From: Dudresnaya verticillata
Taxonomy: Eukaryota
Assembly (NCBI GenBank): GCA_977862235.1
Contig: OZ374560.1
Location: forward strand, 2,914,001-2,941,251
Reading direction: 5' to 3'
DNA length: 27,251 nucleotides
Under the pieces are notes generated by a model. It made no database searches and was not told where the DNA came from. It saw nothing but the letters and a program-made list of their open reading frames with translations. A program made the position numbers and the translations under genes. Below are positions 1-22,781 of this stretch, in pieces (the stretch's first letter is position 1; each line of letters begins with the position of its first letter).

Positions 1-1221
1 TCCTGGTCCAAAGAGAACCGAAAGAAAAGCCCCCCACCTGTCAGGACGGTAGTGTCCCCTTGCGAAACGCGATCTTGTAGTGCGTAGTTGACAACGTTCC
101 AATGCAGTGTGCTGTTGGCGTCCGGCAATATTTCATCCTCATCGAAAGTGCGAATAAGAGTCTCAGCAAGCCGCTCCCAAGCCCTTCCGACTTGGTTCTT
201 CAACATATCCATTCCGGAAAGCGTGAATTGGCCGACACGCAAGAACATCCAGACAATAATTTCCTGTACTACCATTCTACACCAGTTCGTTGCCTCCTTC
301 TTCCAGTCAGGGAGCTTGAAGTGCTCTGAGCTGTCCTGTTGCGTGACATTCCAAACCAGATCATCACACAACTCCATAATGACCTTGTTTGTCATGTCCC
401 AGCCAATTCGCATACCCTTAGACTGAATAAGGGCTTCTCCTGCTTGCGCATCTCACCAGTACCCCAGAAGGGCTCTTCATATGAACGTATTGTATCTGAA
501 ACATCATTCAAGGTCGCTTTATCAGCATAGGCCTCGAGGTAACCACACATGGAAGTGGAAAACTCTGCGGCGCGCAAGAATGCGAACGCAACTGCATCCC
601 TGGAAGCCTGGTCGAATTTCCTAGCCAACCTGTCAACATCAGAGTTGCTTGAAATCAACCGCTCTTGCGTGGAGGCGAATGCCGTGAGTAATGCCATATC
701 GTGCCCTCTCTCCCCCAACTCGTAGATCTCACGTTTCTGAAACACACAAAGGGAACTTGCTTCCGCACTTAGTAACGACCTGATGTTGGGAACCTGGGAC
801 AGCCGCGTGCTGTACAGAACAGCACGAACGGCGTTTGAAGAAGTACCCATAGCGTCAGCGATCGCGGGAAATGCGGCCACGTAGTCATATTTAGAAGCTC
901 TCTCAGTGAGAAGACGGTCAACGAGGGCACTGTTCTCTTGGGCGGAGTGAGCCTCGCGGCTCACAATGGAGACTTTCTCCTGCACTTTCTGAAGAGCAGA
1001 CCACAAAGAATCCATCGAAACACAGTAGAATTGTAAGCCAAGGGCAACCAAGCTTGGTTGTGCCCTAGGACACCAAATGAGATTTTCTGAAACACCGATA
1101 CAGAGATATCTGTATTGGAGCCACCGTCACGCGACGCGCCGAAAGGAGTCTCAGAAACACGGATACACGGATAGGAGTTTCCGGGTTGTGTCGCACCGGT
1201 TAAAGGGAAGAATCGTACCAA
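1..1221 (-). pseudogene. Decayed ORF of unknown function running off the left edge; probable accessory gene of the outer element
   Basis: ORF 1051..392 (219 aa) is followed, after a frameshift near 420, by a stop-free frame to position 1 (…QSKGMRIGWDMTNKVIMELCDDLVW…GGGLFFRFSLDQ). ORF 1221..961 overlaps its 5' end in another frame. No family recognised. Confidence 0.45.
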
Positions 1222-4200
1222 CAGTTGTCTTTAACAGCCTTATGTGTAGCTCGGGCTGATGAGCCGCGGCTGCGAGTGACCTTTCCGGAAGGGTTTCTGG
1301 TTTCAGAAACTCTCCGTGGTCTTCCCGTTAATCGACACCCTCGAGGGAAATTCCTGTTGCAGAACTAACGCGTGTAAACAAGCACAAAGCGTCTGTGTAG
1401 AGGTGGAGGCAGTAAGCTTAAGCGAATTCGTGGTGTTCGAAAAGCAACGTGGGGGGCAGACTGGCCGGTTTGCGTAGGCGCAGCTGCGGGCGTGTGGGCT
1501 CTGAGTGTCGGAAACTCAACGAGGATTTTCAGTTGCCACCGCGCGGACTGCGGACTGTACCACAATGTCGGTGGTGAAATCACGAGCGTACGCTCGTGTC
1601 ACAGTGAGCAAAGCAGAAAGACTAGAAAGGAGGAAGCTGAGTGTCAGAAAACTCGTGCGCGAGAATTGTGAGTTGGTGTGGAAGGCGGAAAAGGGTTGCA
1701 GGGTCGAAACACTGCAGCGCATGCGCTGAAGAGGACTCGGCAGTCGGTATGGCCAGGACCGTTCGTCGATGTGACGATTGAGTTTCGGTGTTTTCTTCCA
1801 AGTTGGCGCGGCCGCGGCTAGAGCCGAGTCAGGTCGTGTTACCGCGGTAAAATCCTGGGCTTTCGGGCAGGGCAACATGCATTGTCATGGCATTGCTATA
1901 CGCGCGTGTGCACACTGTACACGCGCGTGTGAGGGCATCACGGATCACTGCGGATCAAAAGTCCGTGCAATCTGCACTTAGAAGTGAATTCACCACACAG
2001 TGAAAACTCGCGAAGACAGGGCACCACATGGAATTACGAAGTAGCCAATTGGCACAATGAGCCAGTCATGTCAGAGTACCGTTGGAGCGTCAGATGGTGA
2101 AAGCCAGTGCTGTCAGCATTCTGTAAGGTTATGTTAGTGTAAGAGCCCATTCTTGCACTGTATGGCTATTGTTACACGTTTCATTCGACATCTGAGAACT
2201 GTCTCCATGTCACACCTCCTGACTTGTGACGGCATCGATAGTTGGCGAAGACGCCTTCGTCGAGACCCTTCTTGTGAGGACAACTGCAGAAAATGAACCT
2301 TGTTGGCAAATTTCTTCCGACAATCGGGCCCAAACATCTCAGTAAGGTCGCAATGAATCTCTCTGCTCAAGAAAAACGAGAGGAAACGTGCAAATTGGGA
2401 CTGAAACGGGCTGTTTCCAAGGACATTATCTCCAATGCTGCTGGAACAGCTTGCCCATGTCTCTTAGTTTCCAAAAAACAGTCTCTCTGCATTGCCCCAG
2501 CATAAGAGGGGTTTGTTGTGTCGAAGAAAACTCTCGGGCATTCAAGGTGGCAAGAAGAGAGCCACCCGTCTCAAAACACATGATGTTTGAATCCTCCTGT
2601 ATCTTCTGCTTCTCTTTGTTTCCTGACACTCTTACCTCACATTAGAAGGGGTAATGAATCTATGTAATGTGGCGCCACGAGAACATGAAAACCTTAAACC
2701 GGGAGTGTATAACAGCCATGGTGACAAATGTCACAATACTCCAACGCAGCCTCCCATGTCAGTTAGCCGCTTAATATGTTTCTGAAACACTTCAAGACAT
2801 CACAAACACCCTGCAGTACCTCTGTAACACAAGACGTTTTATGCTCGTTGCGTCTTGACCTTAGTACTCTGCTGAGTGCTGAGTAGCAGTACTGTCCATC
2901 CTGGAGTTTCACAGACATCTTCTGACACCCATATAACGATCTCCAATGGTTTGGTATTTTTCCCTGGTTTTACTGAAAGGGTTTTCAGAAACGAAAACAC
3001 GAATCCCTTTAAAGTACCGATCTGTAGAATTTTGCAACCGAAATGACTCCATAAACATACATTACAGCGAGGTAAGGGGGTTTCACATCATACAAACAGC
3101 CCCTTCACAGTTGTATTACAATGCTCTGGGCTATTAGAGACAATTGGAAAGTGTTTGACTGAAACTCTTTTCGATTTGTTAGAAAGGAACAGGCAAAGGT
3201 ATCATGGACGATGAGTGCAACAGTTCTACCAAAAGGTTTTCAGAAACACAGCTTCCAGCAGAACTTCTTGACACGCTCACTGTGTATTCTAGGGGTGCTG
3301 GAGAGACCTTTTCTGTAGTTTTTCGGAAGGAAATTGCTTTCCTCAAGCCCCAGTGACAGTTCAAAGTTGTCGTTTCGAAAGTGTTTCTGATACTCAATGA
3401 ATAAGTGCCTGTCCTGCACAACTTCCAGCTTTAAACCATTCCATTACCATCCTTTGTTTGCTCGGTTTCAAAAACACCAAAATAGCACGCATCGGTGACT
3501 AGTATTAGGGCGCAAACAACCAAAGACCGGCATGCACTATGCAGGTGGTTTCAGACATGGACCCGGATTCTAGGGCATTTGATCCCGATTTTCATATGAT
3601 GCCGTCAGATTAGGCTGCCCAAAATGCCCGTAAAATGCCTCCAGAGCTCTGCCTCACTCCGCTAGCAGATCCGAGCCCAAGGCAATACGATACACGGTAA
3701 TGAGGAGCATTGTCCACACTATTGCAACATCTGAGTTTCTGCAACACACACCAGAACAAACATACGATCTCACACATAAGCAGACATGGAAACACACAGT
3801 CAAACGAACACCCACGCAAAAGATGGCTTATCACACAAACGGGCAAAGACAAGAATGTATACAGGTATCACGTGCTGCCGAGTACTGTGCAACGCATGCG
3901 TCTGCAGTCTAGTCTGCAGACGCATGACGAGCTCGTCGAGTAGGCATCCGTCTCGGCGGACATTCAAATGTTCGAGCACATGCACACACAATCACATTTC
4001 TTCTGAAGCGGGCGCAGGCACAGGCTCAAGTAGACGCACGCACACGCACAAATTCAGTTTCTGATACAAACAGAGTTCGTTTCTGACACACACAATCCAG
4101 CAACCTGTGGGCCCGCAGGGAAAGGAACCATTTCGCGAAACCGAGGTATCGATGACGAGTGCACAGTCATGTTACAGCGTTTTCGGAGCAGCTGCGCGCA

Positions 4201-4279
4201 GTTTCGGACATACTGGGTTTACAAAGCTGTGGACTGGGGGAAGTGGCACAGAACTATTCTCTGGAACAAACTAATTTCT

Positions 4280-5861
4280 TTACTGCTTAAACATTGGCTG
4301 TAGGTATCCGTCGCAGAGCTCACATTTTCTACCGAAGACCTCTGAACAATCCCAGTGAGTCTTCTGAAAGCACTCCGGGCATTCCCCGAATCCCGCGTCC
4401 CCTGTTGATGGGGCTTCATTTGCGTACTTACAATTCGTTTCTCTCATGAAGATATGTCTATTGCTGCGATTAACTCTGCTTGGAGTACCGTCGACCCTTT
4501 GTCTCTTCTTGGTATGATCAGTAGGTTCCAGGGAGTGTTGGTCGTACGCACCCAGCAGTTGCAAATCGCTTTCGCTGGTTCGACTCAGACATGGGGAGTT
4601 GCCGCGGTAGCTCATGAGTTAATATTATTGGGGAGGGTTGCACAACTGTTTGCCGTGATGTGGTTCTCCCTGTGGATAGGAACCTCGCGCGAGTTCCTTT
4701 TGAGGCCAGTTATTGAGTCGGAGGAAGACCCTGTGCTCTTACTCTTGGACTAGGTGCAGCTGCTGCTGCAGCGATTCCGATACCATGCGTGTTTTCTGAA
4801 ACTCCAAGCTGCGGGGAAGCTTCCGGATGTAATGACTGAGAGAGTGTTTCTGATTCACTGGATGGGGTGATGGAAGGTGTACGGTGGGAATATCCTGTAC
4901 GACCTTGGTCTAGGCGTACTTTTTTCCGAAGTACAATTGACAATGGCCGTCAACGAAGGTCGTTGTTCGATTCTAGAAGGCGACCGGGACGGCTGAAGTC
5001 CGTTGGAACCATCTGACCGTAGTGGTATCGGATGTTTGTTTATACCAACACCAGCAGGAGGCATGGAATCAGTCGCATTTCTGACTTCGGGCATGCTGCT
5101 CGTTCTCGTAGGCGTGCGAGTATTTTTCTGCTGGTTGCGTCGTGCGGATGCAGTTTCGATCCTACTGTCATGTCGGTTGCTTCTGCTGCCTGCGCGCAAC
5201 ATCTCAGAATTCTCAATGAGCTAGTCCAGTGTATGCTTAGCGAAAGCTTCCTCCATGACGTAGAAAGCTGCCAATATCAATGCAATCCGTTCCCCTTCTT
5301 TCGCGTTCCTCACACATCTGGTGGGAGTAACTGCAGCCGTGCCAGTGTTTGACGTTTGTCCGAAAATCAATGTCCTTCTCATCCACGGAGGTGTGAACGT
5401 TCTGTATCTCATCTGTGTGTCTGAAACTCTACTCTCATCTTTTGCCTTCTTGAAAGCCTGTGAGAAGAATACTTCATACAGCCACATCCTAATTTCCGAG
5501 GACGGACGGATAAACTTCGTCGCTGCAGACGCTGGGATCGCAAGCGTACCTTTTGAATCGCCTCCCGTTCGCTTTTGACCAGGAAACTAGTCTGGGATTG
5601 TGCACTTCTCGTTTGCTGTTTGTATGGAAACCCGCGTAACACCACTTACCTCTGCGTCTTCAGCTAATTGAATTGTAGGATTGACAGAAACATTGCGAGA
5701 GAAGCTGAGATGTACTGACTTTCCAGACTGCGCTCATCTCTGAAAGAGACGGTCCTTGAATACACTACCGTGAACTGACGACTATTTCCCGACGATACCT
5801 CTTTAAGAATATGTATCCGCGTATTCTCATTTTTCTCCTCGGCAGTCTTTGCAGCATCCAC
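4280..5861 (-). pseudogene. Fragmented gene with a low-complexity middle and a C-terminal Cys/His zinc finger (PHD/RING-like spacing), divergent from the KDZ-like transposase
   Basis: Collinear minus-strand ORFs 5861..5664, 5487..5221, 5202..4855, 4943..4710 and 4615..4280 are separated by single stops or frameshifts. A GTAAG donor-like site lies at ~5649. The last ORF ends CPECFQKTHWDCSEVFGRKCELC. Confidence 0.5.
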
Positions 5862-5913
5862 CAGCTCTTCTCTCCTGGAAACAGGACAATCGAACTGGAT
5901 TCAGAATCGAGAT

Positions 5914-6681
5914 TGTAGCATAGACGTCGGGTCGATCCGACGTCTGATACTTGCTGGTCCGAAGCCGCCACACAGACCCATCGATGGGTAGCTGTTGGGG
6001 TTGGTAGAGCGGTGTCGGCCGCGTTCGCCCCGCAGGTGCGGATCGACGGCGTCGATGCCGGAGCGCGCACGGGGCGTACCGTACGCGGGTAGGCAGCGGC
6101 CGGATCCCAGCGTCCCTGTCGAAGGGCGGCACGAAGCCGACGGAAAGGAAGAGGAAAGGGGAAAGCCTAGAGAGGCAAGGGGAAAAAGGGAAACCGCCCG
6201 CTGGCGTAAGGCAAAGGGATCGAACCCGAAAAGTCTGGGGGCAAGCTTCAGCGCGAGCTGTTGCTTGCCGGGTTTACGTCGATGGCCGACGGTCTTAAAT
6301 ACCCTACACTATGTGCACTACAACTACTTCTACAGTAGGTGCGCCCCACAACACCAACGCGGGAGGTGTACGAGCGCGCGCCCATACACGTGTCGACACG
6401 TCCGGGTAACGGTTACCCGTGGGCGCGCGCGGGGCTTAACGGGCAGCGGCCCTCTCAACGGCTGGATGCCGGAGAGCGTCATAGGGGCGCGCCGTGTGCG
6501 GCACGGCGCGCGGCCGCTGCCGGCAGCAATGCGGTCGACCGCTACTAATTCAACAAAAAAACTAAGGGCACGCTGCCCAACCACAACTCGCCAGCGGGCG
6601 TCATCGTGTGCACCATTACAGTGCAGGGCTGCCAGCATACCTTACAGCCGCTGCTGGTAGGGTGCTGACAGCTATACTACA
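5914..6681 (-). mobile_element. Solo LTR (768 bp)
   Basis: Begins TGTAGCATAG and ends CTATACTACA (TG…CA, 9/10 inverted match). Flanked by the 5-bp TSD GAGAT (5909-5913 and 6682-6686). GC-rich and non-coding. Orientation is inferred from the position of the CT-rich tract. Confidence 0.9.
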
Positions 6682-6803
6682 GAGATATATTGCATTCCTT
6701 TCCGTGGTGTTGTTTGGTTGTGCCATTTGGATAATAGTCAGTAAAACGCGCCTCGCTCGCGTGCGCCTTTGCGCGTAGAGCAAATCCTGTCATCGAGCTA
6801 GAC

Positions 6804-8428
6804 TTGACTGGGCAAAGTTTTCATCCCCATGCAGTAAATGGGGGCAAGGGAGAGGAGGGGTCATTTCCGTATATTCCGTCAGCTGACGAATCCAGCGACG
6901 CAAACAACGATATATCTGCACCAGAAACAGGTTCCGCGGAAGATGCAGATGCCCAGCCTATGCAGAGTATGCCATGGCATGAGACGGTACCATTTGCAGA
7001 ACCCGCGCAGAAAATACAACGGACATCCAACGGTAGAACGTCAGTTCCTGCGAACAGATTGAACGAGCAAGAGTTGATGAGTAGGGCTATGCGCGAGTGC
7101 ATGCGCTGCTTTTTATGGATTGCTCATAGCCGGAGAGATGGCATTGAGATGCGTTTGCTGCACAATCAGTTCGAAGGTCGGCAAGTTGCAGCAATGGCTG
7201 CTATGAGCGAGGTTAACGTTGTTAATGAGCTCGCAATTGCAGTTCTATGGCAAGTCATGAAGAAGCCCCCTAGACCTGTTTGCGTAACTATTCGCAAGCA
7301 GGGGACCGGAGTTCTCAGCGTGACGTGTTCCTGTGATTCTATGTATGCCAATTCTGTTCCCAACGTCCCTCAAGGTATGCGCTCGTCTATCGCATTCAAA
7401 TGCGATGATACAAAAGTCTGTATGAGCCATGAAGGTCTGTATAGGATATTTCACAGTACGTTTCAGGACCCTGAAAAGGTAGGCAAGTACAAGACAACGG
7501 TTCTGAGTGAGAATGGTCGCCCTCCTTTAATTGAGCTTGTGAGAAGGGCCCAACCTTGGTTGAGAAGCCGCAGTGATAATCTTGGGGCCCTAGCTTGGGC
7601 ATTCTGGATATCATATGATACGAAACGACATCTGTTTGTTCCGATCCTGAAGAAGAGGAGAAAGGATTTCCGTTGTTCCATGTGTAGAGGTTCCTCGGAG
7701 CGAAGAGCTTCATGTAACCATGAAAGAACTTGCAAGTCTTCTGCTGGTGTTTCTGAAACTGTTTCTGAAAATCCTTCTACAATGGCAACCTCCGGTACAC
7801 CGGCTAGTCGTCTTCCATCTGCCACAAATGCCGATGACATGAAGTACGCCGGGACTAATACAATCCAACCGCTTCTTCCTTGTGAAGGAGAACGGAAAGC
7901 CATGGAAAGACTGGCCAAAAAGATACGTTTGCGTGATGAGGATACCATTTGCAGACACTGCGACCTAACAGTAACAAATCCGTTTTTGTCTACAGACAGG
8001 TCAGCCTTCATACTTTGGCGAGGGGAAGGGTTGTGGTTTTCTTCGGAGATTGGAAGTGTCCCATGCTAGCTTGCAGGAAATGGAACTACTACACGGGTGC
8101 CTGGGATGCTATCTTCCCATTCCGACCGGACTCAGCATTCACTACATCATTTCTCTACACAATGGTGGATGGAACTGCTCGGCAAGGGGTAGCATTGCGC
8201 GGTTCCTACTCAATTATGAAGTCTCTGTATCGTGGAATGTTGGACGAAGCTCCTCCCTTCCCTTTGAAGTGTGCGTTTGAAGAGGCTTCAGCAGCGAGAG
8301 AACGCGTCAATGAAGCATTTAGATTGTTTCTGAAAACACTTGATTTAGATGATGATGAGTTCACCAGTGAAATATTTTCTTGCTCAGAATGCGAGGTACC
8401 CTTGACTGAAGGCGACCGGCGGACCTTG
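6804..8428 (+). pseudogene. 5' half of a Cys-cluster (SWIM/CxC-like) KDZ/Zisupton-like transposase
   Basis: ORFs 6804..8069 and 7949..8479 are joined by a frameshift near 7970. Motifs: VTCSCD, FRCSMC…CNH, ICRHC…LHT…WKCPMLAC…YTGAWDAIF…FTTSFL, FSCSEC. The reading frame is cut by the TIR element at 8429. Confidence 0.6.
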
Positions 8429-9422
8429 AACACTAATTTCGCCGGCTACAGAATTTCCAAAACAGAACAGAATTTTTGAGGGTCCTTGAATCCCGGCGTT
8501 CGATAGCGCGTTGGAAAGGGGGCGCTACCCTGAGAATAGTGGTGCCAACAGATCGGAGCAAACGCAAATAGTTTCGGAGTTATGCACTCCGGCATATGGG
8601 CCCCCCCGGGGTCGAAAGTTCCCGAAAGGTGTGATTTTTCCGAAAAGTTCCAATTAAAAATTCTCCAGAAATTGATTCTGCCCCGTCCCGCCGCCCGCGC
8701 CCGCGCCCCCGACCGCACACCGCATTCTGGCGACTTCCCGCCGCATTCCGACGCGCTCGGACTTGGCTTCCCACCGCATTCCGACGCGCGCTCGGCCACC
8801 TCCTCACTTCCGACAGCCACTCCCACCATCACCCTTTCTGGTGCTGCTACTGGCCCACACATTCTGCATTCCGGCGCGTGCGCACGCGCTCTGCTTCTGC
8901 CTTGCGCGTAATGAGCCGCGCTTCCCCACCCCCTCCCAGACCCGTAGTGCCGCTCCCCGCCCCAGTCCGGACTGTGGCCGCACTCTGTCTCACGCTCCCT
9001 GCCGTTCACCCATACCTCGCCGTCACCCTTCCCCGCTCACCGCGCCCGGCCGCATTCTGACACGTCCACATCAAGTTGCCGCATTCGGGCGCACGGTCAG
9101 CCCCTCCCAGCAGTCCCCCGACACGCCTCCTCACCCTTCCCCGCGCTCCTGCGCACCGCGCCCGGCCGCATTCTGACACGTTCACATCAAGTCGCCGCAT
9201 TCGGGCGCATGGTCAGCCCCGCCCAGCAGTCCCCCGACACGCCTCCCTCACCCCTACCCCGCTCCCGTGCGGCACGGCCACCCGCTTTCTGACCCGTCCT
9301 CACAACTGGACTCAGTACCCGCCCGACCGGGTACTCTACCAGGTAGCTCAGCCGCTTGCGCACCCGCGGTTCGGACTTAGCTTGTGGCGTAAACGGGCGC
9401 TACAGGCGTCGAATGGCCTTGC
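8429..9422 (+). repeat. Left terminal inverted repeat (~1 kb)
   Basis: Collinear inverted match to 22962-23957 with scattered substitutions. ORF-track translations 8763+/23622- and 8582+/23803- are near-identical. Confidence 0.95.
9023..9262 (+). repeat. Tandem duplication (~117-bp unit) within the TIR
   Basis: CCGCGCCCGGCCGCATTCTGACACG…ACATCAAGT…CCGCATTCGGGCGCA…GGTCAGCCCC…CCCAGCAGTCCCCCGACACGCCTCC occurs twice. It is mirrored at ~23120-23360. Confidence 0.9.
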
Positions 9423-10092
9423 ATTTCTCGTGTGCTGCATCAACCTGAGAGTATAATTTACTGGTTGTAGCTGTTTCTCGTATCAAGAGCCGGCATACCT
9501 AACTAACAACGGCGATTGTCTGATTCTCTTCTGGACGAGCTGCGGTAGACGTCTCTTCGTAAGAGCTTCGAATTCGACCATTACGGTCGCGACGCCGACA
9601 GTACCAGTCCATGGCTGCTTAGTCGCTGAGTATATGGATGCCTTGTACTTTCCGTCCCAAGCACCCTTACCGTCATACGCCTCGTACCATCTTATATACA
9701 GATCAGTAGCCTTTCCCGTAGCGTCCTGCAGAACATCTAGAATCTGTCCAACCCAAAATGGGCATCGTGCGGTGGCGTTCTCCCTCACAACGGCAACGAA
9801 GTAGTTCTTCGTGTACTGCAGGTCTGAAGGGGGGTCACAGTCTCCTCCTCACCGTCATCCCCTTCCGGTACGTACTCCAGCGCCACTCTTCCGCTGTACT
9901 TTCCCCTTGTCTCAAATATGTGTCCCATATCCCAATGAAACGTTTCCAGCCTATCTCTGTACACGTGGTCCCGCAATTCCTGCAGCTCCCTCATCTTTCC
10001 CGTGTCATACACACGTGTCTCTTCAGAACGAAACCTGTCGTTGACTTCCTTCAAATCTGGTGGCGATTTGACCACTGTTGCTGGAGTCTTGC

Positions 10093-11828
10093 TGTCGTGC
10101 AAACGTCGTATCGAAGACGGAGAACGCCTCCGGGCCGATCGGGAGCCCGGTGGTTAGCCGCTAGTAGCGAACTGGGTAGAGCGGGTAGAACACGCCTAGG
10201 GCGGACTGTAAACACCCAGGGCGAGCGGACGAGGGGGCAAGGAAACCCAAAAGGAAACACGTTAGCAACGAGTTGAAACGTGGAAACACGGATGTGTGGT
10301 GCAAGGGGAGGCGAGCCCTTTTTCGCTGAAAGCGGGCAGACTAAATACGTCGACCGACGGAGAAACCGCCACCGGCGCTCACCACCGCCGTTGGCGCGCG
10401 AACACGTCATCGACGGCTCATTGGGGCGCGCGCGCACACTGTGCGCCGCGCGCCACGCGGGCACTGTACGGTGATGGCCCGACGTGGCGCCCCGGGGCAC
10501 TGTAGCACGGATCCGGATGCGATCCGGATCCGGCATCCAGATTGGCTATCTAGATCGCCTAAGCTGTAAGGTATGCGCCTGTAAGGCTGCGGGTATCAGC
10601 ATTGCTGGCCCGATCCGGATGGGATCAGGATCGGACAAGTACCAGATTAGATCTAAGACGCACGCTCTACAGTGCGCGCGCACGCGCGGCTGTAAGGCAC
10701 ACGCGTCCACGTGTACGTGTAAGCACCCACACAGGGGATTGTACGACGATCTATCAGACGCGCGGCTGCATGCGACGCGTGATCTGTCAGACGCGCCTCG
10801 GGACGACACGTGTCCCGAGTTCCCGCGCTACACGCACGCCGCCGCGCCGCCGTACTATACTTAGGTAAGCCGTCCCAGACGTCACAGTAAACACCCGGGC
10901 GAGCCGGCCTTGGTCCAGACTTCCCCGTTCCGCACGCGCGCATTCTACCGCTGTGTACGGCTAAGCGTCTACCTCCCGTGCTTCCACGTCTACCATCGCC
11001 CTTGACGTGTTCCCCTTTCTCTTTCTCTTTTCCTTCCTTTCTGCCTCGGGCGTTTACAGTCCGCCCAAGGCGTGCCCCTTTTGCTCTACCACCAAGTCGC
11101 CCACGGCGGGTCTACCTACCGCCGAGGGCGCAGCTACCCACCGAGCCCCGAACTGCTCGGCGGTCTATCGTCACTGGACGTTTTGCACCACAGGATGGGT
11201 AGACACTTATGCTTCCGAGCAGCGGTAGGGTGCGCGCTGACGCGGAGGGGAAGTCTAGACTCAAACCGGCTTGCCGGGGCTTTACTGTTACGTCCTGGAC
11301 GAGGTGCCTAAGTAGTACTATAGCGCCGCGGTGCAGCGGCTGCATGACGTAGTGCGCGGGATCCCGGGACGCGTGTCGCGTGGAGGTGTGTCTGACACGT
11401 CCCGGGACAATGCAGCCGCTGTGCGCTGGTGCGTGCGTCTCACAGAGGCGTGCTCGCACGGTGCTGTAAGCGATCCGGATTCGGATCGCGATTGACACGT
11501 ATTACAGCGCGTTTCCCTTACAGTGGATCCCGATGTCCGATCCGGATGTCGGATCCGGATTCGATCGGGATCCGGGCCAATCCGACAGTCGACTCCCTTA
11601 CACCTCGTTGATCTCGATGCATCATCCGGATCCGCTCTGCAGCGTTGCGCCGTACAGTGCGTCGGGCGTGCGCTGCGCTGGGTGGCGGCGCCCGCGCGTC
11701 CGTAGGCCAATCGTCGATGACGTGTTCGCGCCAACGGCGAATGAGCCGTTTCAGGCGACCGTCCGTCGGTCGACGAGGTTATCGGCGCCCATGGCGAGGA
11801 AATAAAAGCCGGTCCCCCGTGCGCCACA
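10093..11828 (-). mobile_element. Solo LTR (~833 bp of its own sequence) inserted in the transposase and split by a second solo LTR
   Basis: Begins TGTCGTGCA and ends TGCGCCACA. The 5-bp TSD is CTTGC (10088-10092 and 11829-11833). Its two parts are a diverged inverted homolog of 10295-11192. Confidence 0.9.
10295..11192 (+). mobile_element. Solo LTR (898 bp) nested in a related LTR
   Basis: Perfect 10-bp terminal inverted repeat TGTGGTGCAA…TTGCACCACA. The 5-bp TSD is GGATG (10290-10294 and 11193-11197). A TATA-like sequence lies at ~10853 and a CT-rich tract at ~11010-11045. Confidence 0.93.
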
Positions 11829-14739
11829 CTTGCCAGGGTCAGGAGGGGATAGTATGAACCCCTTATGCTCTCCTCCTGTCTGCAACGGAACCCAGTCATC
11901 CGCGCATGTCATTCTCAATTGACAGCCTGTCACGAAAGCTGCAACAGATTCTGCCTCTTCCGTCGCAGCTGGACCCACACGGTGGAATCTGAAATAGCGA
12001 TAGGTCGTGAATGCCTCAATATTACCAATGCATCCTTCCTGCCGACACAGGCCTGAGAAATTCGCAATTTGAAGCATGCGACTGACAACTGGTTCTGGAC
12101 TGTACGACTGCCGAAGCTCTTCCATCAATTCAGTCATTGTGACTGCGTCCCGAACTTTAAGCCGGCGTGCCGTTCACGAAAAGGCCTGATCTATATCTGT
12201 GTGAGTGTGCCCGACGGGCAGGAAAGACACGAAGACCTCTTGGAACACACCCCATGCAACGAGACTCTCCAGTTATGAGAACAAAAAGGTATTTTTGTTC
12301 TCTCTCGAACAGTTGTCTACTTGTAGAAATAAAGTCCCTTGTAGCTCTCCTCTGGACTGTTTGTCCGAAAGAGTTCTGTGCAACGCCTCGATAATGTGGT
12401 TCGCGCCGGTCTCGAACTCACCGGTCATTGTGTACAAGTGCAGACGCTTCTCAGCCCTGTGTTCAAGCACCCCAATAAGTTTCGCTTTCATGGCATGCCC
12501 AATGCTGGATTTGGACGACACCACAAAATGGGGAAGTCCAAATGCGGACTGATCAGCACCATCCACTATGAGGGAGCAATACTCTTGCGGCAATAGTATC
12601 GCCTTTTCACATTTTTCTGATATTCACGTCTCTCTGCCTGTATGAATTTCAAGTGAATGTTGCACCGCTCATGCAGGTGTTCAGTGCCTGCTCCAGAGGT
12701 CCCTGCCTGAGCAAGTCGCTCGCGAATGAGTTCGCATTCGCTGCACTTTGCAAATCGGTGTGTCTTTCGCACCTTAATGCGGGAGCAACTGTGTTTCCAT
12801 ACAAAGTAAAAGTAACTCTGACACGGAATATCCCTGTTTCTGTACAGCCTGGTGTGGTCCAATTTGAAGATGTCGTACACAACTGATTTCTGAAAGTAGG
12901 GGAGGTGTGACTCCCCATTATCGGGCATTGGTTCAGCAGTGCTGTCTGTAAGACGTTCAAGGAAGCAAATGATAGTATCTTGCTGATGGGATGAGGTATC
13001 ACGCCTCGCATTGTTTGGGAGTTGCAGCTTCCGGGACTGCATTGTGCCTTTTACAGACGTCTGTAACTCGCGGGAGAATCCAAAGGCCTGCTCCAAAAAG
13101 TTGTAACAGACAGGCTGGCGGTTGAAAAGTATTTCATCTTCCTCGTGTCCAACAGATTGCATAGATACGTTCGCCTTGCTTCTACGTCCATTCCGGCAAT
13201 TCTGCGCGCCTCCGCCTTTACGTACACTTGCTCCACACTTTGGGAGCACTTGTTCCCGATGCAGCATCTCATTGACTGCGTGTTTGCGCGTTCCAGGTCT
13301 TTGAACAGGTGCCTACGTCTCTTCTGAAGACTTCCTCTCCCACTGAATGTCCGCTGCTTTCTCTTCCTGTAAGTATACTTTCGCTTCGTCCTGACCTGCA
13401 CCTTCTGAAAAGGGTCATACGCTTCGTCATCACTTTCCGACACGTGTCGTACGGCGTCCGCATCATCATGGCTGGCCTCCCTCAAATGCTCTCGCGGTTC
13501 ACTCATTTCCTCACTGCTCGGAGCATTGCAAGGCGGGGGTGTTGTTCGAATTGACCGCGCTGCGGCATCCGCTTGCGGCCCCGAACTTTGTTGGAGGGGT
13601 GATGTTGGCCTGGTCGTGTCAACTGGTGTCATCTGCTGGGGCGATGCGGTAGGGGCCACTGCTGCGGCAGTGTTTTCTGCAGTTGACGTCGGGGGGCAAT
13701 TGCTCAGTATTGGGTAAATTCTTCGACGAACTATGCCCTTTCGTGGAGAGTACAACCGTCTCTGGCACAACGGCGCGATTTCTCGATTGCCGAGCTCCTG
13801 AATGTAGTTCACATCCCATGCATGAAAACCCCCACCCATCTCCCCAAGTGTGTGCGGAACTGAGTCCGTCGTCGTGTACTTGTATTTGTACTGAAGTTTC
13901 TCATACGGTTGCATGATTTGTGCTCGGTAAACCACAACCAGCTTCTCCCCTTTTTTCTGACTGGGAGACAATTTGTGGCCATGGAGGGTGACACAATACC
14001 TGCCAGACTGGTCTGTGTCCTCTTTTTTCCCCGGTCTCTTGACAATAGCAGTGCCGACCATTTCCCTGTCATACAGAAGAGCAACATGCCCTTCGTCGCT
14101 TGATTTGCCTCCTCCTTTCTTTGCTCCATTTTCTCGCTCAGCGCAATCCGTAGTTGCCGGGCTCATTTCCATGTCGTTCAAAATGTCCTGCGACAGTATC
14201 TGCACACAGCTTGTGAGAGTGCCACTCGTTCTGTCTTCCCTTCACGCTCTCAGCAGAGCGCCCACTTTTCAGTCTGTTAAGGCACCTGGCCAACCTGGCG
14301 GGGAGGCGCAGCCCTTCGCAGCGAAACGCTTGCGCATTAAATACCCTCTGTGATACCGCGGCGCGCCGCCTGTTGCCTGCTCTTGAGGCTTCACACCCGT
14401 GGAGCGGCACGAGTGGCTTCACGAGGTGCATCTGGGTTATTCTGCAACCCAGATTCTGTTTGTGATCAGATTCTGGTTCTGCACTTGGCCAATTACATTT
14501 CAGGTACAACTTTCCGCATGCATGCGGAGCCACACAAGCTGCAGCTTGTGAGAGGCGGACACATACAGCTGACGGTCACTCTGGGGTGAACTGGCAGTTG
14601 CAGTGCGCCTACATCACGAGTTGATATCGTCTGCAGACGCTTCCAAGGAAGTCGCGGCACAGCACGAATGGAAATGCTGCTGCTACAGTTGTCTCAATGC
14701 CTTAAGGTACTGCAGTAGCATGAGGGTTTCAGGATCGGC

Positions 14740-14900
14740 GAAGCACACGACAGGGCTCAGGACAAAGACGATGGACATGTGGCGCCAGTAGAGTGGCGTC
14801 GGAAACTTCAGCAAACAAATGAACCTGATCATCAAGGAACCCCCGAAAACGAAGTTTTTTGTTGCAACGGACACATTTGAAGTGCGCATTCATTTTCAGA
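14740..14900 (+). pseudogene. Possible captured glycosyltransferase (fucosyltransferase-like) gene fragment
   Basis: The frame reads TMDMWRQ*SGVGNFSKQMNLIIKEPPKTKFFVATDTFEV. F(Y/F)(L/V)ATD preceded by F…M…P resembles GT-B fucosyltransferase-like proteins. The match is short and degenerate. Confidence 0.3.
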
Positions 14901-15780
14901 CCGGCAGTTGTGCCTCGGTACAGCTTGACCAAGTCGATGCACGCTAGCTGTGATCGCGTCTGGGACTTTGCCGCTGTTGGCAAGCGGCTCTCCGACAGGC
15001 TGCCATTGTAGGGAATAATCCCGAACGGGGCGAGAGCGCTAGGCGTAACAAGGATCAAGAGTGTGAAGACAGGGCAAGTCGACAGCGATTACTTGCTAAA
15101 TATTGATAGCGAAGCAAGTGGCATCCTTTGACTGTCGGTACGATCACGATAATGGATATGTTTGGGGGCGCTCAGCGAGGCTTAAGTGGTGAAAATAGTC
15201 GCAACAGCACAAGGCAGAAAGTCGTACAGATGTAGTCAGACATTAACAAACAAGTGACCTCACCTCTCGTGAAGAATATCTTTGAACGCGAGAGTAGGAA
15301 CAGATGAGTTGAGACTTTGAATCAGATTCGACAATACGGCATTTCTGATGGGGAATCTGAATGTGGATATCCGCTCACGGCAGTGATGCAGCTTTTATCG
15401 TTTTCTACAGACTGTATTCAAACTATTAACGGCAAAGCATCACGTCGAGCTTTTAACCAGCTCGAAGCGCTGCGCTATCATAAGGCGAAGAAACTGAACT
15501 CGCGCGCAGTGTTGTTTGTTTTTATTAAGTCGTTGCCTGAGTAGCATCACGTTTGAACAAAAGTAGGCAATACCACAATCTAAATGAAGCAGCGCACCAT
15601 TCCACAAACGTGGTTACCATATTTATCTATAGATTCGTGAATTTGTTGCTCTGTCAAAGAGTTATCTTCACCTCTAGAGACAACAGGTAGAAGAAAGAGG
15701 GCTGGACAGCGGAAATTAATTGCAGGTGAAGGATGGCACAACAGGTGAACACGTGAGACTAACCCACCACCTGCTACAGC

Positions 15781-15999
15781 TGATGGTTTGTTGTGTTGGT
15801 TTGGAATGGATGGCGAATGTAACAGATTCTGTGCTTCCTACACTCTGACCGAGCGACTTCAACATCCAATTATACGCCTACCAAACAACCATGATGGTTT
15901 GTTGTGTTGGTTTGGAATGGATGGCGAATGTAACAGATTCTGTGCTTCCTACACTCTGGCCAAGCGAAGTCAAAGTCCAATTATACGCCTACCAAACAA
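15781..15999. repeat. Tandem duplication, 111-bp period, 2 copies
   Basis: TGATGGTTTGTTGTGTTGGTTTGGAATGGATGGCGAATGTAACAGATTCTGTGCTTCCTACACTCTG occurs identically at 15781 and 15892. The second halves of the two copies differ slightly. Confidence 0.95.
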
Positions 16000-16258
16000 T
16001 AAAAAGAGTCAACAGCACTACCGCATCCTGCGAAGAGGAGGGAACGTGACACTGGACGAAGCTGGTGCGTTGGGTAAAACTGTTCAAAGAAAGGTAAGGG
16101 ATCGTGGTTCCGACAACAACCGCAATTCGATCCTTACAAGCCGAACCACGGAAATCAGAACGGCCTTGACTCCCTCTGCAAGACAATACACGCTCTCCTT
16201 TTTGTAATTGACCTTGCGTTCCTAGCAAGCTGCCTGCACCATCATTTGCGGCACTTTC

Positions 16259-17800
16259 TATACTATGCCACAGCATTGCGGAAACTGTTCGCGCAGGACA
16301 TGGGCGATGTGGTGAAGTGAAAGGCACACCTGTAAGGAGAGCTGATCAAGCAATCCCAATAAGGAGTGATCTCACACGGCACCGGGGTGGTAGAGCTTAG
16401 TTCGTAGACCGAAGGGAGTACCTCGAGCGGCAACACCTGTAAGGAGTAAAGGGACGCACCAGACAAGGGGGACCGTACAGTGCCAGGAAAGCTACACAGG
16501 GACGGAGGTAAGAGGAATCCGTGCACGGGGCTGGCGAGGGGAAACCGTAAAGGACTATGAGGGTAAGGCTTAGGGTAAGTCACTTTGCCCAGGGTTGCGT
16601 ACCCGTTTACTGTAGGACTCGCGGTGGCCACCCATTAATATACTGGGAGATACGCCCCGCGGTCCGGTCCGTGTGGGCCAGACCCCAATGGGTCTGGTCC
16701 ACCAGGTGGGTCCGGCCCTACTGGTCCCGGTCACCGTTGCGGACATGCTCGGCATTCTTATTGGCCGGCTGACACTACGTACTGTACAGCATGATTATAA
16801 TTACCTAATTACAAATAAATCAACTACTTGACTCCTATTCGTGGTGCGCGCAGACTCCAGCAAGGTATACAGTGCTACTGTGTCGCTGCACTCCGTTTCG
16901 GCTTTTGGTGCCAGCTCACCACTGCGCCGGGCGCGGGTCGGCTCAACCGTCGTCCGCACTCCGAAACGGCCGCTTCACCACAGGCGAGATACAGCGCCTC
17001 GCCCTCGTTCATGCCATCAATGAGAGTAAATTGCTCGCCTCCTGTTTCAAGGCCAAGCGTGAAGCGTCAGCCGCCGTTCGCGTCCAGCGAGCACGCAAAC
17101 ACATGCGGCAAGTTTTTGAGGTAGGCCATATCGGCCTGGCGCGACGTCCTTGGTGATAGCGTGTACGCTATTACAACGCGACCCACCAGGAAACGTCTGC
17201 GATGACGATGAGCATCCAGGCGGCCGGGAAGCGGTTGCGGCGGACGACGGACAGGCGAAAGTGTGGCTCCGCGGAGTGGGACATAGCGAAGGGGCGGGCG
17301 GTGGGGTGGGGTGTTGTGGAGCACATCGCGGATGCGGATCACTATGGTCACCTGCGTGGCCAGGTCTGCGGCCGCGGTGGTCGGCACGGGCAAATGGTCA
17401 GGCTGGCGCGCGTCGACCGGGGCGTGGTCGAAGAGCGAGGCGGGCGGGTGCGGGAGTGGGTTGCGCGAGTCTGCGCGGGACTCGTGCAGGAAGGTGTTGA
17501 GCGCTTGCACGTCGGCTTGGCAGTGGTCCACGCGCGCGAGGGAGGAGAAGTGCAGCAGGTGGTGCAGCGCGATAACCTCGACGGCGAAGCGAGGGTGGAG
17601 CTGCGTGTCGACGCGGGCGTTGGCGGGGATTGTTCCGGCGGCGAAGCGGCGCAAGTGGTCGAGCGGGACTTGCAGGCGGGCGGATGCCACGGCGAGGTAC
17701 GTGGGGGTGTCGGCGGCGCGGCGGACGAGGCGCAGCACGGACTGCGGATGAACGAGGCACAGGTGCGACGGGTGCAGGTTTTTGTGCGTGGAACGGGAAG
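16259..17800 (-). pseudogene. Captured host-like gene fragment (GC-rich codons), interrupted by a solo LTR
   Basis: ORF 17924..17067 has a strongly GC3-rich core (~17200-17780). It continues through one TGA and across the LTR: …DANGG*RFTLGLETGGEQFTLIDGMNEGEALYLA|HVLREQFPQCCGIV*. Confidence 0.5.
16308..16982 (+). mobile_element. Solo LTR (675 bp)
   Basis: Perfect 10-bp inverted ends TGTGGTGAAG…CTTCACCACA. The 5-bp TSD is GGCGA (16303-16307 and 16983-16987). An internal TATAA lies at ~16796 and AATAAA at 16814-16819. Confidence 0.92.
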
Positions 17801-18720
17801 ATGAGCAGCAGCAGGAGCGGGAGCAGCGTCGAGGCCAGATAGATTGTGGAGTTTGCTGGCTCTCAGGACCTGTTCCCCAATACTGATATTGCACTTTGGG
17901 CTCCTGCGTTGCCGTGAAGCGCAATATCTGTTCTCATAGCAATGTGACTTGGCTGCATTCAGAAGCTGTAAAGGTGTTGACGGCGGCCCAATGGAAAGAC
18001 CCTTTTACAAGCTTATTCAATATCATTGGACAGAAAATCTATACAGGTTTTTCAGTGCGCAATTTGCCACATCAAAAGAACAGCTATTTGGCCCGGCGCT
18101 CTCGCCCCACCTGTTCCCTGATACTGATATTGCACCCACAGGTGTTGACACCTCCCACCCCCGAGAACCTGTTCCTCGTAAATTGACCGCCGCGCCCCCC
18201 CGCTGGCACGCCGCTGGCAACGGTGTGCCAGTACTCACCGACACCGTGTGTGGCATGCTATTTTACTCGCAGTATCAGCACCTGGCCAGGCTGGCCTCAA
18301 CTTCAAAGCCCGGCCAAGTCGGCTGGGACAGCGAGCAGCATACCCTAATTGACTTTGTTACATCTCGCCCTGCAGGTCTTGTGAAACCTGCATTCTACCA
18401 ATTCCAACTGTACGGCCTGTGCTAAGCATAAGTTCTGATGGAGACTGCCCACACCCAGTGAACAATCCACGTGACCTCCCGTGCCATGTCGGAATTTGCG
18501 GCACATCCATGTCGTACTCTCGCCGTCCGGTGTGTCGAAAGCCCGTATGGTGCCAGTCGAAAACGGCACCCTGCAAACATGAGCCAGGGACGTAAAGAAC
18601 TTCTTGCGGAAGGTTTTCTGAACAGAATCTGGGCAACTCGTCGGACATGCAGTACCCCTTTCCGTACTCTTTCAAGGAGAGCGGTTTTCACGTGCACAGG
18701 GAGTCTTTCTCTCGCACACC

Positions 18721-21700
18721 ATGTCGAAGCGCAAGAAGCTGAGCAGGGGGTCAAGTGAGCCCTTGAGGAAGGAGGATATGGCACAGGCACTGTTTGGAGA
18801 TGTCATGGAGGGGTCTACCAACATTCGAATAGACCCCAGGTCCTGTGTTCCGATGATTGATATAAGGGACATCTCGAGATCCGGTGTTGAGAGGCTCAAG
18901 AAGATTTTTAGGGGTGGTGGGACGAGGAGCGCTAACTGCAACAACGGGTACATTGCCGGTTCTGATGCGCCCATACTGGCTCGCCTAACAGGTCCATTCA
19001 GGAGTTTCATTTTTGAGTTTCTCCGAGCTAAACGGAATGCGGATGGGACAGAGTACACAGAGAAACAGATGAAAGAAGAGGCCTCCAGTCGGTCGGAGTG
19101 GTTCGGTGTTGTTGATGGCATGCATCGACTTATCGCCATTATGGAGCTAATCGATGAAGACCGGGAGACATGGAAGGGGTTTGCTTTGACTGCCACTGTG
19201 CTTAAAGGGGGGCACAACATCCAGATTCTGAAGCAACTGGCTCTTCATCATAACAGAAAGCACGACTCCAGCTTTTTTGTAGAGACCACGTTTTACGATC
19301 AGATATGCGGTCTTAGGAAAGAGGCAGACGGTCTCGAAGCCAGTAATGGGAAGACTCCGACTGCGACGGCAGTTGCCGAAGCATATGATTGATGCAGTCA
19401 CCTATCGAAAAACACTATCAAACAGACAGCGGCAACCGTTCTTCGTCTTGACCGTCGCGTTATTGATGTAATTGGGAAGATAATGAAGGAGGAGGTCCCT
19501 GAACTAGTAACTATGCAACTGTTGACTGCTTCCGGAAAGGCCATAGACTCAAATGTCGCGATGCAGAATCTGGATTGTATAGTATACAGACGCTTCATTC
19601 ACGTCAGTTCCATCAAGTCTTCCAAGGCCTTTATGAATGCAGGCAGCTCTGACAACGGCATTACTGTTCAAATAGCTACTCTGTACAGGCTTCGAGAGGT
19701 GTCAAGGACACACAATTTCAAACCTGCTTCGGCCAAACACACGCAAGAGCAATTCTTGAAAGCTTCAGCCGCCCTTTCCGAGACTGGAAAGTTTGAAGCG
19801 ATGAGGGAGAGGACAGAATGGCCGTCAGGCATGAGTACATTAAGAGAAAACCTGTTACACACTACGAAGCTGGACGTCGAGGTCATCATGAATCGAGGTA
19901 ATGACCGTACACTGTTGAAAACAATAGTTGAGATGTACAGAGAGTGTTGTCCGGAAGAGGCCCCAGTGAAGTTGCAGAAGTACAAAGATCTGCAAACTGT
20001 GATGGATTCGACAGACGTCAGACGTGATGATGCTGTCATGACCCGCCCGGGTTCCAATGAATGTGGAACAAAAGATTCTGACGGTCAACAGAATTTGGAC
20101 TGCACATTGTCACCGCAGGTGGACGCTACCGGAATATCTAATGACGACGAGATTTTAGACTTAGTAACATCAACCAATTCGAAAAGGGAAGAAGGTCGCG
20201 AACCAGCAGAATCTGGACAGGCACCCGTCCAGAACGCAGACCCTAAAGCTGCATGTGCAGCCAAAGACCTTTCTGTACCGGAAAAGAGTCCCACAGACCC
20301 CACTGCATCAACTGTGTCATCAAAGCAGTCTGTTCGCCTCAACATGGGTACTAAGCCTGTGCCGGTGTAGGACGGATCGCTTTCTGTTCCAATAGATTAT
20401 CTTGCGGAAATGAAACTGACATGCTTCCACATGACATGGCAGAGCTACGACAGTACCGTAAGGAAGGAAGGTGACAAACGATTCGATTTAATCCTCACTG
20501 ATCCACCATACGGTACACCGAAATCGCAGTCTAAGTCGGGGAGGTCATTCGATAAACCTCAGCGAGGAAGACATTAAGAAGATAGTTGAGTTCTCGAGGC
20601 GCGTACTTGTAGCAGGGGGGTGGTCGTTTGTTTTCACGTCATTCCTGAACTTCGGTATATTCCACGATGCTCTGAAGAAGGCACAATTCATGTGCCCAGC
20701 ATACCCATTCTTATTCTCCGAAGACCCCAAGACCATGCAGGAACATCGGGGGAGCGATATGCCCCAGAACTGTGTGGAAATAGCCGTTATGGCGCTTGCC
20801 CCAGGTCAGCATGGCGGAGGGTTCTCGCTCGACCTTAGGAGCGAGTATCACTGCATCCCCTCCCCAGAAAAGCGGAAATTCGTGTGCATGTCCTCTCTAC
20901 CAACACCGAAACACAAGTTGCTACGCCCAGGCACCAAGTCCCCAGTTCTGGTCGAAGAGAAGTCTCCCGAAGTACTTGTGGAGATAATGACAATATTCTG
21001 TCCGGAGGGCGGGTCAGTTCTGGATATGCACAGCGGAACCATGACGACTGGGATTGCAGCTCTCAGAACAGATCGTCGGTGTACACTAATCGAATCACAG
21101 GTGGAAACATTCAAGCTGGGGGCTGAACGTTTGCGTAGGCTTGCCACGGAAGCATATGAAATGAAGACAGGTCGTAAACGTTTGGAATCAAGTGCTCATG
21201 ACGAACTGAATGGTATCGGTGAGGCAGCAAGAGGTAGTGTTGTCAAAACAGATTCTGCTCAACCAACAAACCATTCCGTAACGAGGAAGGGACCTGAAAT
21301 GTCCCATCTGACGACACCGTCCGAGCACGTATTGGATGACCGCGAAGAGAGTATCGAGAAGCACGGCAGGAGTGAAGACATAGTTGTAGGAAGTGTGGAG
21401 CTAAATGAAAAGTGCAGGAGAAGGAAAACACCTGAACCTTGTGCAATGCCCAAGGCCGGAGACAGAGTCACGCTTCTTGCAGATGATAAGGAAGTGGGGG
21501 AGGCCGTGTTGCATCCTGAAAAGACTCCAGGAGGGAACTGTAATGAACGCTTGCACGACCACGATCTGTCAGAATCTGCCAAACCAGGGGAGCATCTTGT
21601 GGTCGTGTACAGTTTGAAGGTCATGGCGGAGTATGAGCTAAGTTCGTATCCGTATATATTCAAGGGACTAGAGGACCCTCCTGCCAATCTCAAGGGCCTA

Positions 21701-21751
21701 AACGGCTTGTTGTTCTCGTGGGACTTTCACAACATGAAGAAGATTGGGTAG
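18721..21751 (+). pseudogene. ParB/Srx-like domain + beta-class amino-DNA methyltransferase (DPPY; N6-adenine or N4-cytosine) fusion, ~1010 codons
   Basis: WFGVVDGMHRLIA (19099-19137) is a ParB-like motif. Also FDLILTDPPYG (DPPY at 20500-20511), RRVLVAGG, and EKSPEVLVEIMTIFCPEGGSVLDMHSGTMTTGIAALRTDRRCTLIE (SAM-binding motif I, 21017-21052). In-frame stops lie at 19390 and 20368, and a frameshift at ~20553. Confidence 0.88.
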
Positions 21752-22250
21752 GAATTATAGTCAGTACAGTACTATTGTCATAGGCCGAATTGAACATTTC
21801 TCGAGCATCCGTATTCTGAACATGTCTTTGCGTCTTGCTTCCGCCATGATCCATGAATTCGACGTCGTTCAGGCACCATTTACTCGAATAACGCCAGTGC
21901 TTCCACGTGCCGTACTATGAACGCGGGGGTTATATTTGGTCCACCAAACAAAATCTGTCACGGAAGGCTGTCGCGAGTGTGGCACATGTACCGTACTGCT
22001 GCAGCTGTTGGCAACGTTGCGGCATATTGGCAGTAAGTGATTGATCGACTACGTACCGGAGTGCGCCCAGGGCTGTCTCCAACGCATATGAAATGGACAC
22101 CCGTGAGATCGTGGAAAGATGGACTATGTATTGTTCAGGAACGCAGTGATCCTGTCGCAGTTAAAGGCCTCGGCCATTTCGGAAAGAGAGCTGAGATGAA
22201 ACGAAGTGTTCGTTCACCACCATAATCTGCTGTGACCAGAATAACGCTGT

Positions 22251-22781
22251 ATGGAGACCATGGATGACTTGATTCTGGATGTGGAAAAGCTGTACAACGC
22301 CGTTAAACGTCGGATGGGGGAAGATCTTAGTCGTGAGGCACGAAATTGGACGCCCCAAAGCCCTAGCAGTGACGACGACATTCTGGACAACCACAATGAC
22401 CTGGATCGTGCCCAAATGGCTTTGGAATCATCACAGCAATTTTACGCAGACAAGACGATGATGGAGCATTCCCACCATCAGAAAGCTTTGGAAAAGTTGT
22501 ACAGGTTGTTGCTGAAGAAAATCTTTCTCGTGGGAAGGGGCAAGTACGTACACGGTGCAGCCCATGCTGTAGACTTTGCGATCGTCGAAACGCTGCACAG
22601 GGGCGGAGAGAACGCATATCAACTGGACCGCTACACACGTCTGCTTTGCACCAAATTCTACATGTCCAACAGCCGCGCAATGAAACCGGAGGTGAGGATG
22701 TGCATCATGAGGAGCCTGCACAATGAACTGTCTAGTTGTGAAGGGCTGTATATGCGGAAGCATGATAGCAGCGATTGCTAA
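22251..22781 (+). CDS. Orphan ORF (176 aa) next to the right TIR; possible accessory protein of the element
   Basis: ATG-initiated and uninterrupted, with protein-like helical composition. No family recognised. Confidence 0.4.
   Translation: METMDDLILDVEKLYNAVKRRMGEDLSREARNWTPQSPSSDDDILDNHNDLDRAQMALESSQQFYADKTMMEHSHHQKALEKLYRLLLKKIFLVGRGKYVHGAAHAVDFAIVETLHRGGENAYQLDRYTRLLCTKFYMSNSRAMKPEVRMCIMRSLHNELSSCEGLYMRKHDSSDC

Follow-up and report, generated by a model that had tools for sequence, protein, structure and literature searches.

Two dispersed palindromes, each confined to one of two nested transposons in Dudresnaya verticillata, as candidate family-specific docking sites

The window analysed here is a stretch of 27,251 nucleotides of contig OZ374560.1 (assembly GCA_977862235.1) of Dudresnaya verticillata, and all coordinates are positions in this window. 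It contains an outer element with a KDZ (Zisupton)-like transposase gene, and within this gene lies what appears, from its ends and gene layout, to be a Sola1-like transposon (8429–23957), hereafter the insert. Each of the two carries a short palindrome of its own, GTTTC(A/T)GAAAC in the outer element and CAGA(A/T)TCTG (CAGA-W-TCTG) in the insert. The genes and boundaries on which the argument depends are the following, with TSD for target-site duplication and TIR for terminal inverted repeat.

6738–8428, plus strand: 5′ part of the KDZ (Zisupton)-like transposase gene, frameshifted near 7960–8070
8425–8428, plus strand: left TSD copy, CTTG
8429–9428, plus strand: left TIR, terminus AACAC, with CCGCATTCYG repeats and a 116-bp tandem unit; neither palindrome
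11751–14241, minus strand: broken transposase-like gene with DUF7869 (PF25273, E 1e-45, read through stops)
18721–21751, plus strand: broken gene of about 1000 codons with two stops and a frameshift; predicted ParB/Noc-like N-terminal part fused to a methyltransferase
22956–23957, minus strand: right TIR, terminus GTGTT, 94% identical to the left TIR
23958–23961, plus strand: right TSD copy, CTTG
23962–25031, plus strand: 3′ portion of the KDZ-like transposase gene; the window lacks the C-terminal core that homologs have

The tetranucleotide CTTG on both flanks of the insert constitutes a 4-bp TSD, and excision of the insert restores the interrupted reading frame. The homolog P0001 aligns up to its residue 253 at position 8428 and resumes with residue 265 at 24006. 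Since homologs run across the insertion, the two outer halves are one gene, and a single element comprises positions 1–8428 together with the segment that follows 23961. The repeats that bound the insert had been labelled long terminal repeats in the first-pass annotation, a label ruled out by their inverted orientation; these TIRs of about 1 kb differ by 61 substitutions in 1003 columns, 9 of which are CpG transitions. A CACTA/Plavaka reading of the insert ends (2–3-bp duplication) was set aside because the 4-bp duplication is exact and the split frame is restored. The insert thus has the 4-bp TSD and the TIRs of a Sola1 element. Sola1 transposons prefer AWWT targets (PMC3845634). The target CTTG departs from AWWT, although a single site cannot measure a preference, and the insert is therefore filed as Sola1-like only. 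DUF7869 is the only domain detected in its transposase-like gene.

The split gene of the outer element has four distant homologs (E 1e-10 to 6e-7), among which Pfam finds CxC4 in two (E 0.004 and 0.027), KDZ in one (E 0.033) and none in the remaining one, all below the curated cut-offs. The window's own outer open reading frames (ORFs) give no CxC or KDZ match in Pfam, also when read through stops. Residues of P0001 past about 570 of 910 have no match in the window, where the gene stops at 25031. With the C-terminal catalytic core absent and the Pfam matches below cut-off, the outer element is called KDZ-like only. KDZ transposons have an 8-bp TSD and defined termini (PMC12730594); no terminus of the outer element could be recognised in the window, and on the left the element continues beyond the first position.

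The two palindromes are distributed as follows.

492, 733, 1083, 1148, 1300, 2778, 2982, 3237, 3383, 3465, 3735, 4057, 4079, 4792, 5417 (span 492–5427): outer palindrome, 15 dispersed copies with at most one mismatch
7749, 7761, 8326 (span 7749–8336): outer palindrome, three copies in transposase ORFs
1505, 1641, 2906, 3548, 4846: outer palindrome, copies with two mismatches
24378–24388: outer palindrome, a single weak copy with two mismatches in the 3′ part of the transposase gene
11945, 14450, 14467, 15823, 15934, 18623, 19222, 19564, 20207, 21249, 21570 (span 11945–21578): CAGA-W-TCTG copies of the insert

With at most one mismatch, the outer palindrome occurs 18 times (4 exact), always within 492–8336. 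By region, all 18 copies fall in 1–8427, with none in either TIR, in the insert interior (13.5 kb) or after 23959. Dinucleotide shuffles (n = 100) yield a mean of 0.62 copies per window and never more than 2, and Markov models of orders 1–4 trained on 1–8427 (200 simulations each) yield means of 0.21–1.24 and at most 5. In a look-elsewhere control, in which all palindromes with 4-bp arms and spacers of 0–7 were allowed to compete, 10 copies were observed for the outer palindrome against a mean of 3.1 in order-3 simulations, and none of 150 simulations reached 10. Pooling of both arms extends the outer site to approximately (G/A)(T/A)GTTTC-W-GAAAC(A/T)C (16 bits), in which the 5-bp core TCWGA is nearly invariant. 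The stretch from 5428 to 7748, including a GC-rich region that separates divergent genes, is free of the motif. All four exact and all twelve one-mismatch copies reported in the first-pass annotation are in place, as is the scarcity of the motif in the insert and its absence from the bounding repeats; the one-mismatch copy at 3735 had been missed. The weaker copies reported there are also present: those at 3548 and 4846 have two mismatches, the one given as 493 lies at 492 and has one, and the one placed near 24380 lies at 24378 and has two. The union of the two outer halves, for which the motif had been invoked, is correct, yet it is the split transposase gene, together with the 4-bp duplication, and not the motif that joins them. 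The copy at 24378 is the one trace of the motif to the right of the insert; it has P of about 0.01–0.05 under seven null models, and one copy there is compatible with the density on the left (2.7 expected).

The insert's own dispersed palindrome had been overlooked in the first-pass annotation. CAGA(A/T)TCTG has 11 exact copies in 9429–22955, against 0.15–0.6 expected, and none in the TIRs or in the left and right outer parts; in the look-elsewhere control, none of 150 simulations reached 11. Within the window, and for these two elements, the reciprocal exclusivity of the two palindromes (18/0 and 0/11) has a Fisher P of 2.9e-8; confinement of the insert motif taken alone has a binomial P of 0.005. 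Both palindromes are odd-centred, with a single central base. Tandem duplication contributes one pair to each motif: a 12-bp tandem duplication gave the copies at 7749 and 7761, the sole tandem pair of the outer palindrome, and 15823/15934 is the only tandem pair of the insert palindrome. After collapsing of these duplicates, 17 independent outer copies and 10 independent insert copies are left. The pair in the insert belongs to a 111-bp tandem duplication (15781–15999) with one CAGA-W-TCTG per unit, a VANDAL-like way to multiply sites.

The first-pass annotation had also noted the outer motif inside ORFs on both strands. Six outer ORFs with 4320 nt in all, picked as the likeliest coding frames, contain 7 of the 18 copies; these 7 compare with a mean of 0.96 (maximum 4) in 2000 synonymous-codon shuffles, and they occupy two codon phases and both strands; both the dinucleotide and the codon shuffling proposed in that annotation thus reveal an excess. 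For the insert palindrome, 11 insert ORFs hold 7 copies in two phases, against 0.55 in synonymous shuffles (maximum 4 in 2000). The excess over synonymous shuffles and the differing codon phases indicate a signal at the DNA level rather than a repeated peptide. The flanks of the outer sites have a mean identity of 25%, so these sites did not multiply as a repeat unit, and a tandem or short repeat unit as their source is ruled out. The sites at 8326 (outer) and 19222 (insert) lie within protein stretches that align to homologs without gaps, so these two are not insertion scars. The outer motif is a DNA-level, element-restricted palindrome. The insert protein could spell CAGA-W-TCTG at 6 places in 998 amino acids, compared with 0, 0, 0, 1, 1, 1, 1 and 4 places in eight relatives; the insert site is therefore not forced by a conserved protein. 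Inference of private palindromes of the relatives from their proteins alone is underpowered, its positive control having ranked second and not reached significance. Two of eight other proteins, P0009 and P0015, could each spell one odd palindrome at more places than their shuffles (6 against 0.75–0.78, at most 1 in 40 shuffles), a hint of further private motifs that we do not count as evidence. A nucleosome-like periodicity of the sites was ruled out (best period 187, null P 0.98).

The gene at 18721–21751 in the insert is a candidate for a protein that reads such sites. Seven homologs align along the whole gene with 42–54% identity, four of them with PF01555. Its methyltransferase part is predicted to be a DPPY beta-class N6-adenine/N4-cytosine DNA methyltransferase, and the C-terminal part matches the beta-class methyltransferases M1.HpyAVI, M.BceJIV and CcrM (E 1e-10 to 5e-8). 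For the N-terminal part, the ten best Foldseek matches of a structural model of the homolog P0007 are ParB or Noc proteins without exception (best E 0.004), and a GxxR-type motif is kept in 8 of 8 aligned sequences that cover it. The C-terminal domain of the methyltransferase (21551–21748, plus strand) is homologous to 13789–13986 (minus strand), a segment within the N-terminal portion of the insert's transposase-like ORF (38% over 66 amino acids); the relatives P0007 and P0009 match both segments, and this shared domain has no name.

Based on these data, we hypothesize that each palindrome is a family-private docking site read by a dimer which the element itself encodes, an interpretation drawn from the sequence that we hold to be somewhat better than even. 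The two-fold symmetry of the sites would suit a dimeric DNA-binding protein, and the reader may be assumed to be element-encoded, as a host factor should hardly tell two neighbouring elements apart so cleanly. In the insert, the likely reader of CAGA-W-TCTG would be its predicted ParB/Noc-like methyltransferase. After loading at the sites, this protein would spread along the element in the manner of ParB/Noc and would there deposit N6-methyladenine (6mA) or N4-methylcytosine (4mC) or displace repressive chromatin, by which means each family would act on its own copies only. For the outer element, the reader gene may lie to the left of position 1, or one of the unclassified minus-strand ORFs may encode it.

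Several alternatives have to be considered. The transposase of each element, and not an accessory ParB-like protein, may read the sites, as internal sites for synapsis or for transcriptional self-activation. Such a reader would likewise yield family-specific motifs and requires no missing gene in the outer element, and the TIR repeat GCATTCYG has ATTCTG in common with the insert palindrome (7–8 per kb in the TIRs versus 1.6 inside). The transposase of AtMu1 binds and activates its own family, and its peaks sat at the TIRs (bioRxiv 10.64898/2026.08.24.746577); the full insert palindrome, however, has no exact copy in either TIR of the insert. Moreover, CCGCATTCYG in the TIRs is asymmetric and same-oriented, whereas the internal palindrome is symmetric and scattered. 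We regard a transposase reader as unlikely, if worth keeping in mind. Alternatively, each element may have gathered sites for different host factors, of transcription or of chromatin, that secure its expression. Host-factor sites are common in transposons, and an element-encoded reader for the outer motif was not found in the visible part of that element; yet no site lies from 5428 to 7748, which leaves the GC-rich DNA that separates the divergent genes without any, sites do occur inside ORFs, and exclusivity between neighbouring elements is strict. This explanation appears improbable to us.

The palindromes could also be methylation targets of the element's methyltransferase, with TCWGA and GAWTC as cores, and not loading sites for a ParB-like protein. 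Both cores have symmetric adenines, the outer core is almost invariant, and the insert enzyme is related to CcrM, the target of which is GANTC, with GAWTC at the core of the insert site. On the other hand, the 5-mers alone are far less discriminating (36 TCWGA in the insert, 13 GAWTC in 1–5900), and the conserved words comprise 9–15 bp, while beta-class methyltransferases usually recognise shorter ones; in addition, the portion of the outer element within the window showed no methyltransferase gene. We give this explanation, which is compatible with docking by a ParB-like protein, a slightly smaller chance again. The motifs might finally be by-products of recurrent peptides, codon bias, tandem duplication or excision footprints, a view that could appeal to the single phase (V-S-E/D) shared by 5 of 7 outer ORF copies and to the one tandem-duplicated pair in each element. 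Against it stand the excess over synonymous shuffles, the two phases, the occurrence on both strands, the unrelated flanks, the lack of indels relative to homologs, and the independent copies that outlast the collapsing of duplicates. Within the window this explanation is largely refuted, and we consider it very improbable.

The proposal of private docking sites with element-encoded readers has its own weak points. The evidence comes from one decayed copy of each element. Of the ORFs in the codon test, those on the minus strand lack known homologs, and their coding status is assumed; homologs exist for plus-strand ORFs only. The sharing of ATTCTG between TIR repeats and internal palindrome fits a transposase reader too, and neither palindrome fits the 16-bp parS/NBS (Noc-binding site) consensus (PMC7383237). 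Within what the window shows of the outer element, neither profiles of the insert family nor Pfam read through stops detected a ParB-like or methyltransferase gene. The insert protein has no ParB match in Pfam, and the ParB call derives from a low-confidence model of a relative (P0007, mean predicted local distance difference test score, pLDDT, of 46), for which no Foldseek match reaches E ≤ 0.001. A VIA-align match to PadC has a Z of 5.7 (root-mean-square deviation 3.4, 82 aligned) and ranks under unrelated helical rows. The Foldseek matches are all ParB or Noc, but given the low-confidence model and the low Z, the assignment of the N-terminal part as ParB-like is a model-based one, weak but consistent.

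Self-binding by accessory proteins of this kind has already been proposed for Bostrychia and Ectocarpus. Sola1-1_Ec32 of Ectocarpus is a giant Sola-1 element with a 4-bp TSD and AACCG-CGGTT termini, in which a gene for a 1104-amino-acid ParB-like and N4C/N6A methyltransferase protein lies opposite the transposase, and self-binding and self-modification were proposed (PMC12477816). The insert has a like layout (AACAC-GTGTT, 4-bp TSD, gene of about 1000 amino acids on the opposite strand). The term "palindrom" is absent from the main text of that paper, and its available passages name no recognition site; Ectocarpus, a brown alga, has both element types (PMC12477816). In red seaweeds, Bostrychia among them, giant Plavaka elements carry methylase (PAG2) and ParB-like (PAG3) accessory genes; PAG genes move among families, Zisupton included, and inverted repeats were proposed as PAG3 binding sites (bioRxiv 10.1101/2025.02.11.637652). 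Those inverted repeats stand in tandem arrays beside PAG3, whereas the sites described here are single, dispersed and intragenic. The domains in Plavaka are split into methylase plus SET and ParB plus 2-oxoglutarate (2OG) oxygenase, whereas here methyltransferase and ParB-like part are fused.

The sites resemble those of VANC proteins in VANDAL transposons of Arabidopsis (PMC5735166) in that short motifs occur many times per element and differ between families, with an element-encoded reader (here predicted); each motif is dense in one family and rare in the other, for the two elements in the window. VANC motifs are, however, asymmetric, mostly non-coding, same-oriented and multiplied in tandem (PMC5735166), while the present ones are palindromic, scattered, partly coding and set in unrelated flanks; instead of same-orientation arrays in non-coding DNA, we find 7 ORF copies per motif and one tandem pair per element. 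The first-pass annotation had conceived the outer motif as a self-tag analogous to anti-silencing targets in plant transposons. An element-specific tag fits an element-restricted DNA-level palindrome beside a different one in the insert; the anti-silencing analogy is not supported, as VANC-type asymmetry and tandem arrays are missing, the sites lie partly in ORFs, and CpG is not depleted (observed/expected 0.85–0.99 in the element bodies). ParB/parS and Noc/NBS offer a further likeness, with multi-copy palindromes, a ParB-fold dimer and specificity switching between paralogs (PMC7383237), and several palindromic sites per DNA unit are present here too (18 and 11 copies). The outer arms TGTTTC...GAAACA coincide with the six outermost bases of the parS consensus, with a centre of 1 bp versus 4 bp, which is a lead only. 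The parS and NBS sites are even palindromes of 16 bp (PMC7383237), whereas ours comprise 9–15 bp with one central base, in a eukaryotic transposon context with no ParA seen.

What appears new is the dispersed, intragenic placement of sites that differ between nested families: a literature search found no report of dispersed intragenic palindromes of this kind, though subscription papers and unreadable supplements may bear on this, and the available part of PMC4738411 has nothing on these elements. Scans for related loci in metagenomes (two), viral sequences (two) and prokaryote genomes (one) gave 137, 41, 166, 36 and 56 pattern matches, none of them confirmed.

Further features of the outer element and its right flank are these.

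3–1126, minus strand: two overlapping ORFs of 244 and 150 amino acids that run off the window start
4283–5900, minus strand: chain of broken ORFs with a Cys-rich end, unclassified
25951–27251, plus strand: telomere-type array, (TTTAGGGG) x160

To judge from the sequence, the two overlapping ORFs probably represent a single accessory gene of the outer element that has undergone a frameshift, and the chain is possibly a second. A helix-turn-helix/ParB-like spacing seen by eye in the ORF at 395–1126 (near 780–850) found no support in Pfam, PHROGs, NCBIfam, PDB, plasmids or profile comparison; a single-sequence model of this ORF (pLDDT 36) is unusable, and its fold search uninformative. Homolog searches with the outer ORFs 6738–8066 and 395–1126 returned nothing, and Atlas gave one low match to a SWIM cluster (0.76) and one blank. 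The region 5900–6700, between the divergent outer genes, is GC- and CpG-rich, lacks the motif, and may be a small insertion or resemble a promoter. Between the abrupt end of the KDZ-like gene and the telomere-type array lie about 900 bp that are GC-rich and contain many TGGCCA (25031–25950), and this region is possibly a truncated, healed chromosome end; the telomere repeat of Bostrychia is TTTTTAGGGG (bioRxiv 10.1101/2025.02.11.637652). Together with the accessory genes of red-algal Zisupton elements, this would suit a red seaweed as the probable host, although Ectocarpus shows that both element types occur in brown algae too. Isolated long palindromes of 18–32 bp, unrelated to both motifs, occur at 3895–3926, 5922–5945, 1581–1598 and 14533–14550. 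Rfam gave no match.

In the insert, 8700–9300 and 23080–23660 hold the subterminal CCGCATTCYG repeats, which number 7–8 per TIR, all in the same orientation, as well as the 116-bp tandem unit; the repeats are likely binding sites of the transposase. The segment 10160–11780 is GC-rich, has degenerate internal inverted repeats in a fold-back layout, adjoins the DUF7869 ORF, contains neither palindrome in exact form, and is possibly a third nested element. A GC-rich block with long open frames at 17160–17840 lies between ORFs of ordinary composition and is unclassified.

More broadly, and with clearly less confidence, we tentatively suggest that unrelated superfamilies of giant algal DNA transposons may run private addressing of the ParB/parS type, with a palindrome placed throughout the body, codons included, a ParB/Noc-like reader of their own that loads on it and spreads, a bacterial-type 6mA/4mC mark on copies of the family only, and orthogonality towards neighbours. 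In such a scheme nested neighbours would be orthogonal because site and reader diverge together, and CAGA-W-TCTG and GTTTC-W-GAAAC would be the explicit recognition sequences of two such systems. Two mutually exclusive candidate sites, one of them beside a candidate reader, turn the earlier proposal of self-binding into a direct cross-specificity experiment. If this is true, a bacterial partition-type protein would have been repurposed in eukaryotes as a family-specific device for epigenetic self-marking, and a simple sequence signature would be at hand by which to sort giant nested transposons.

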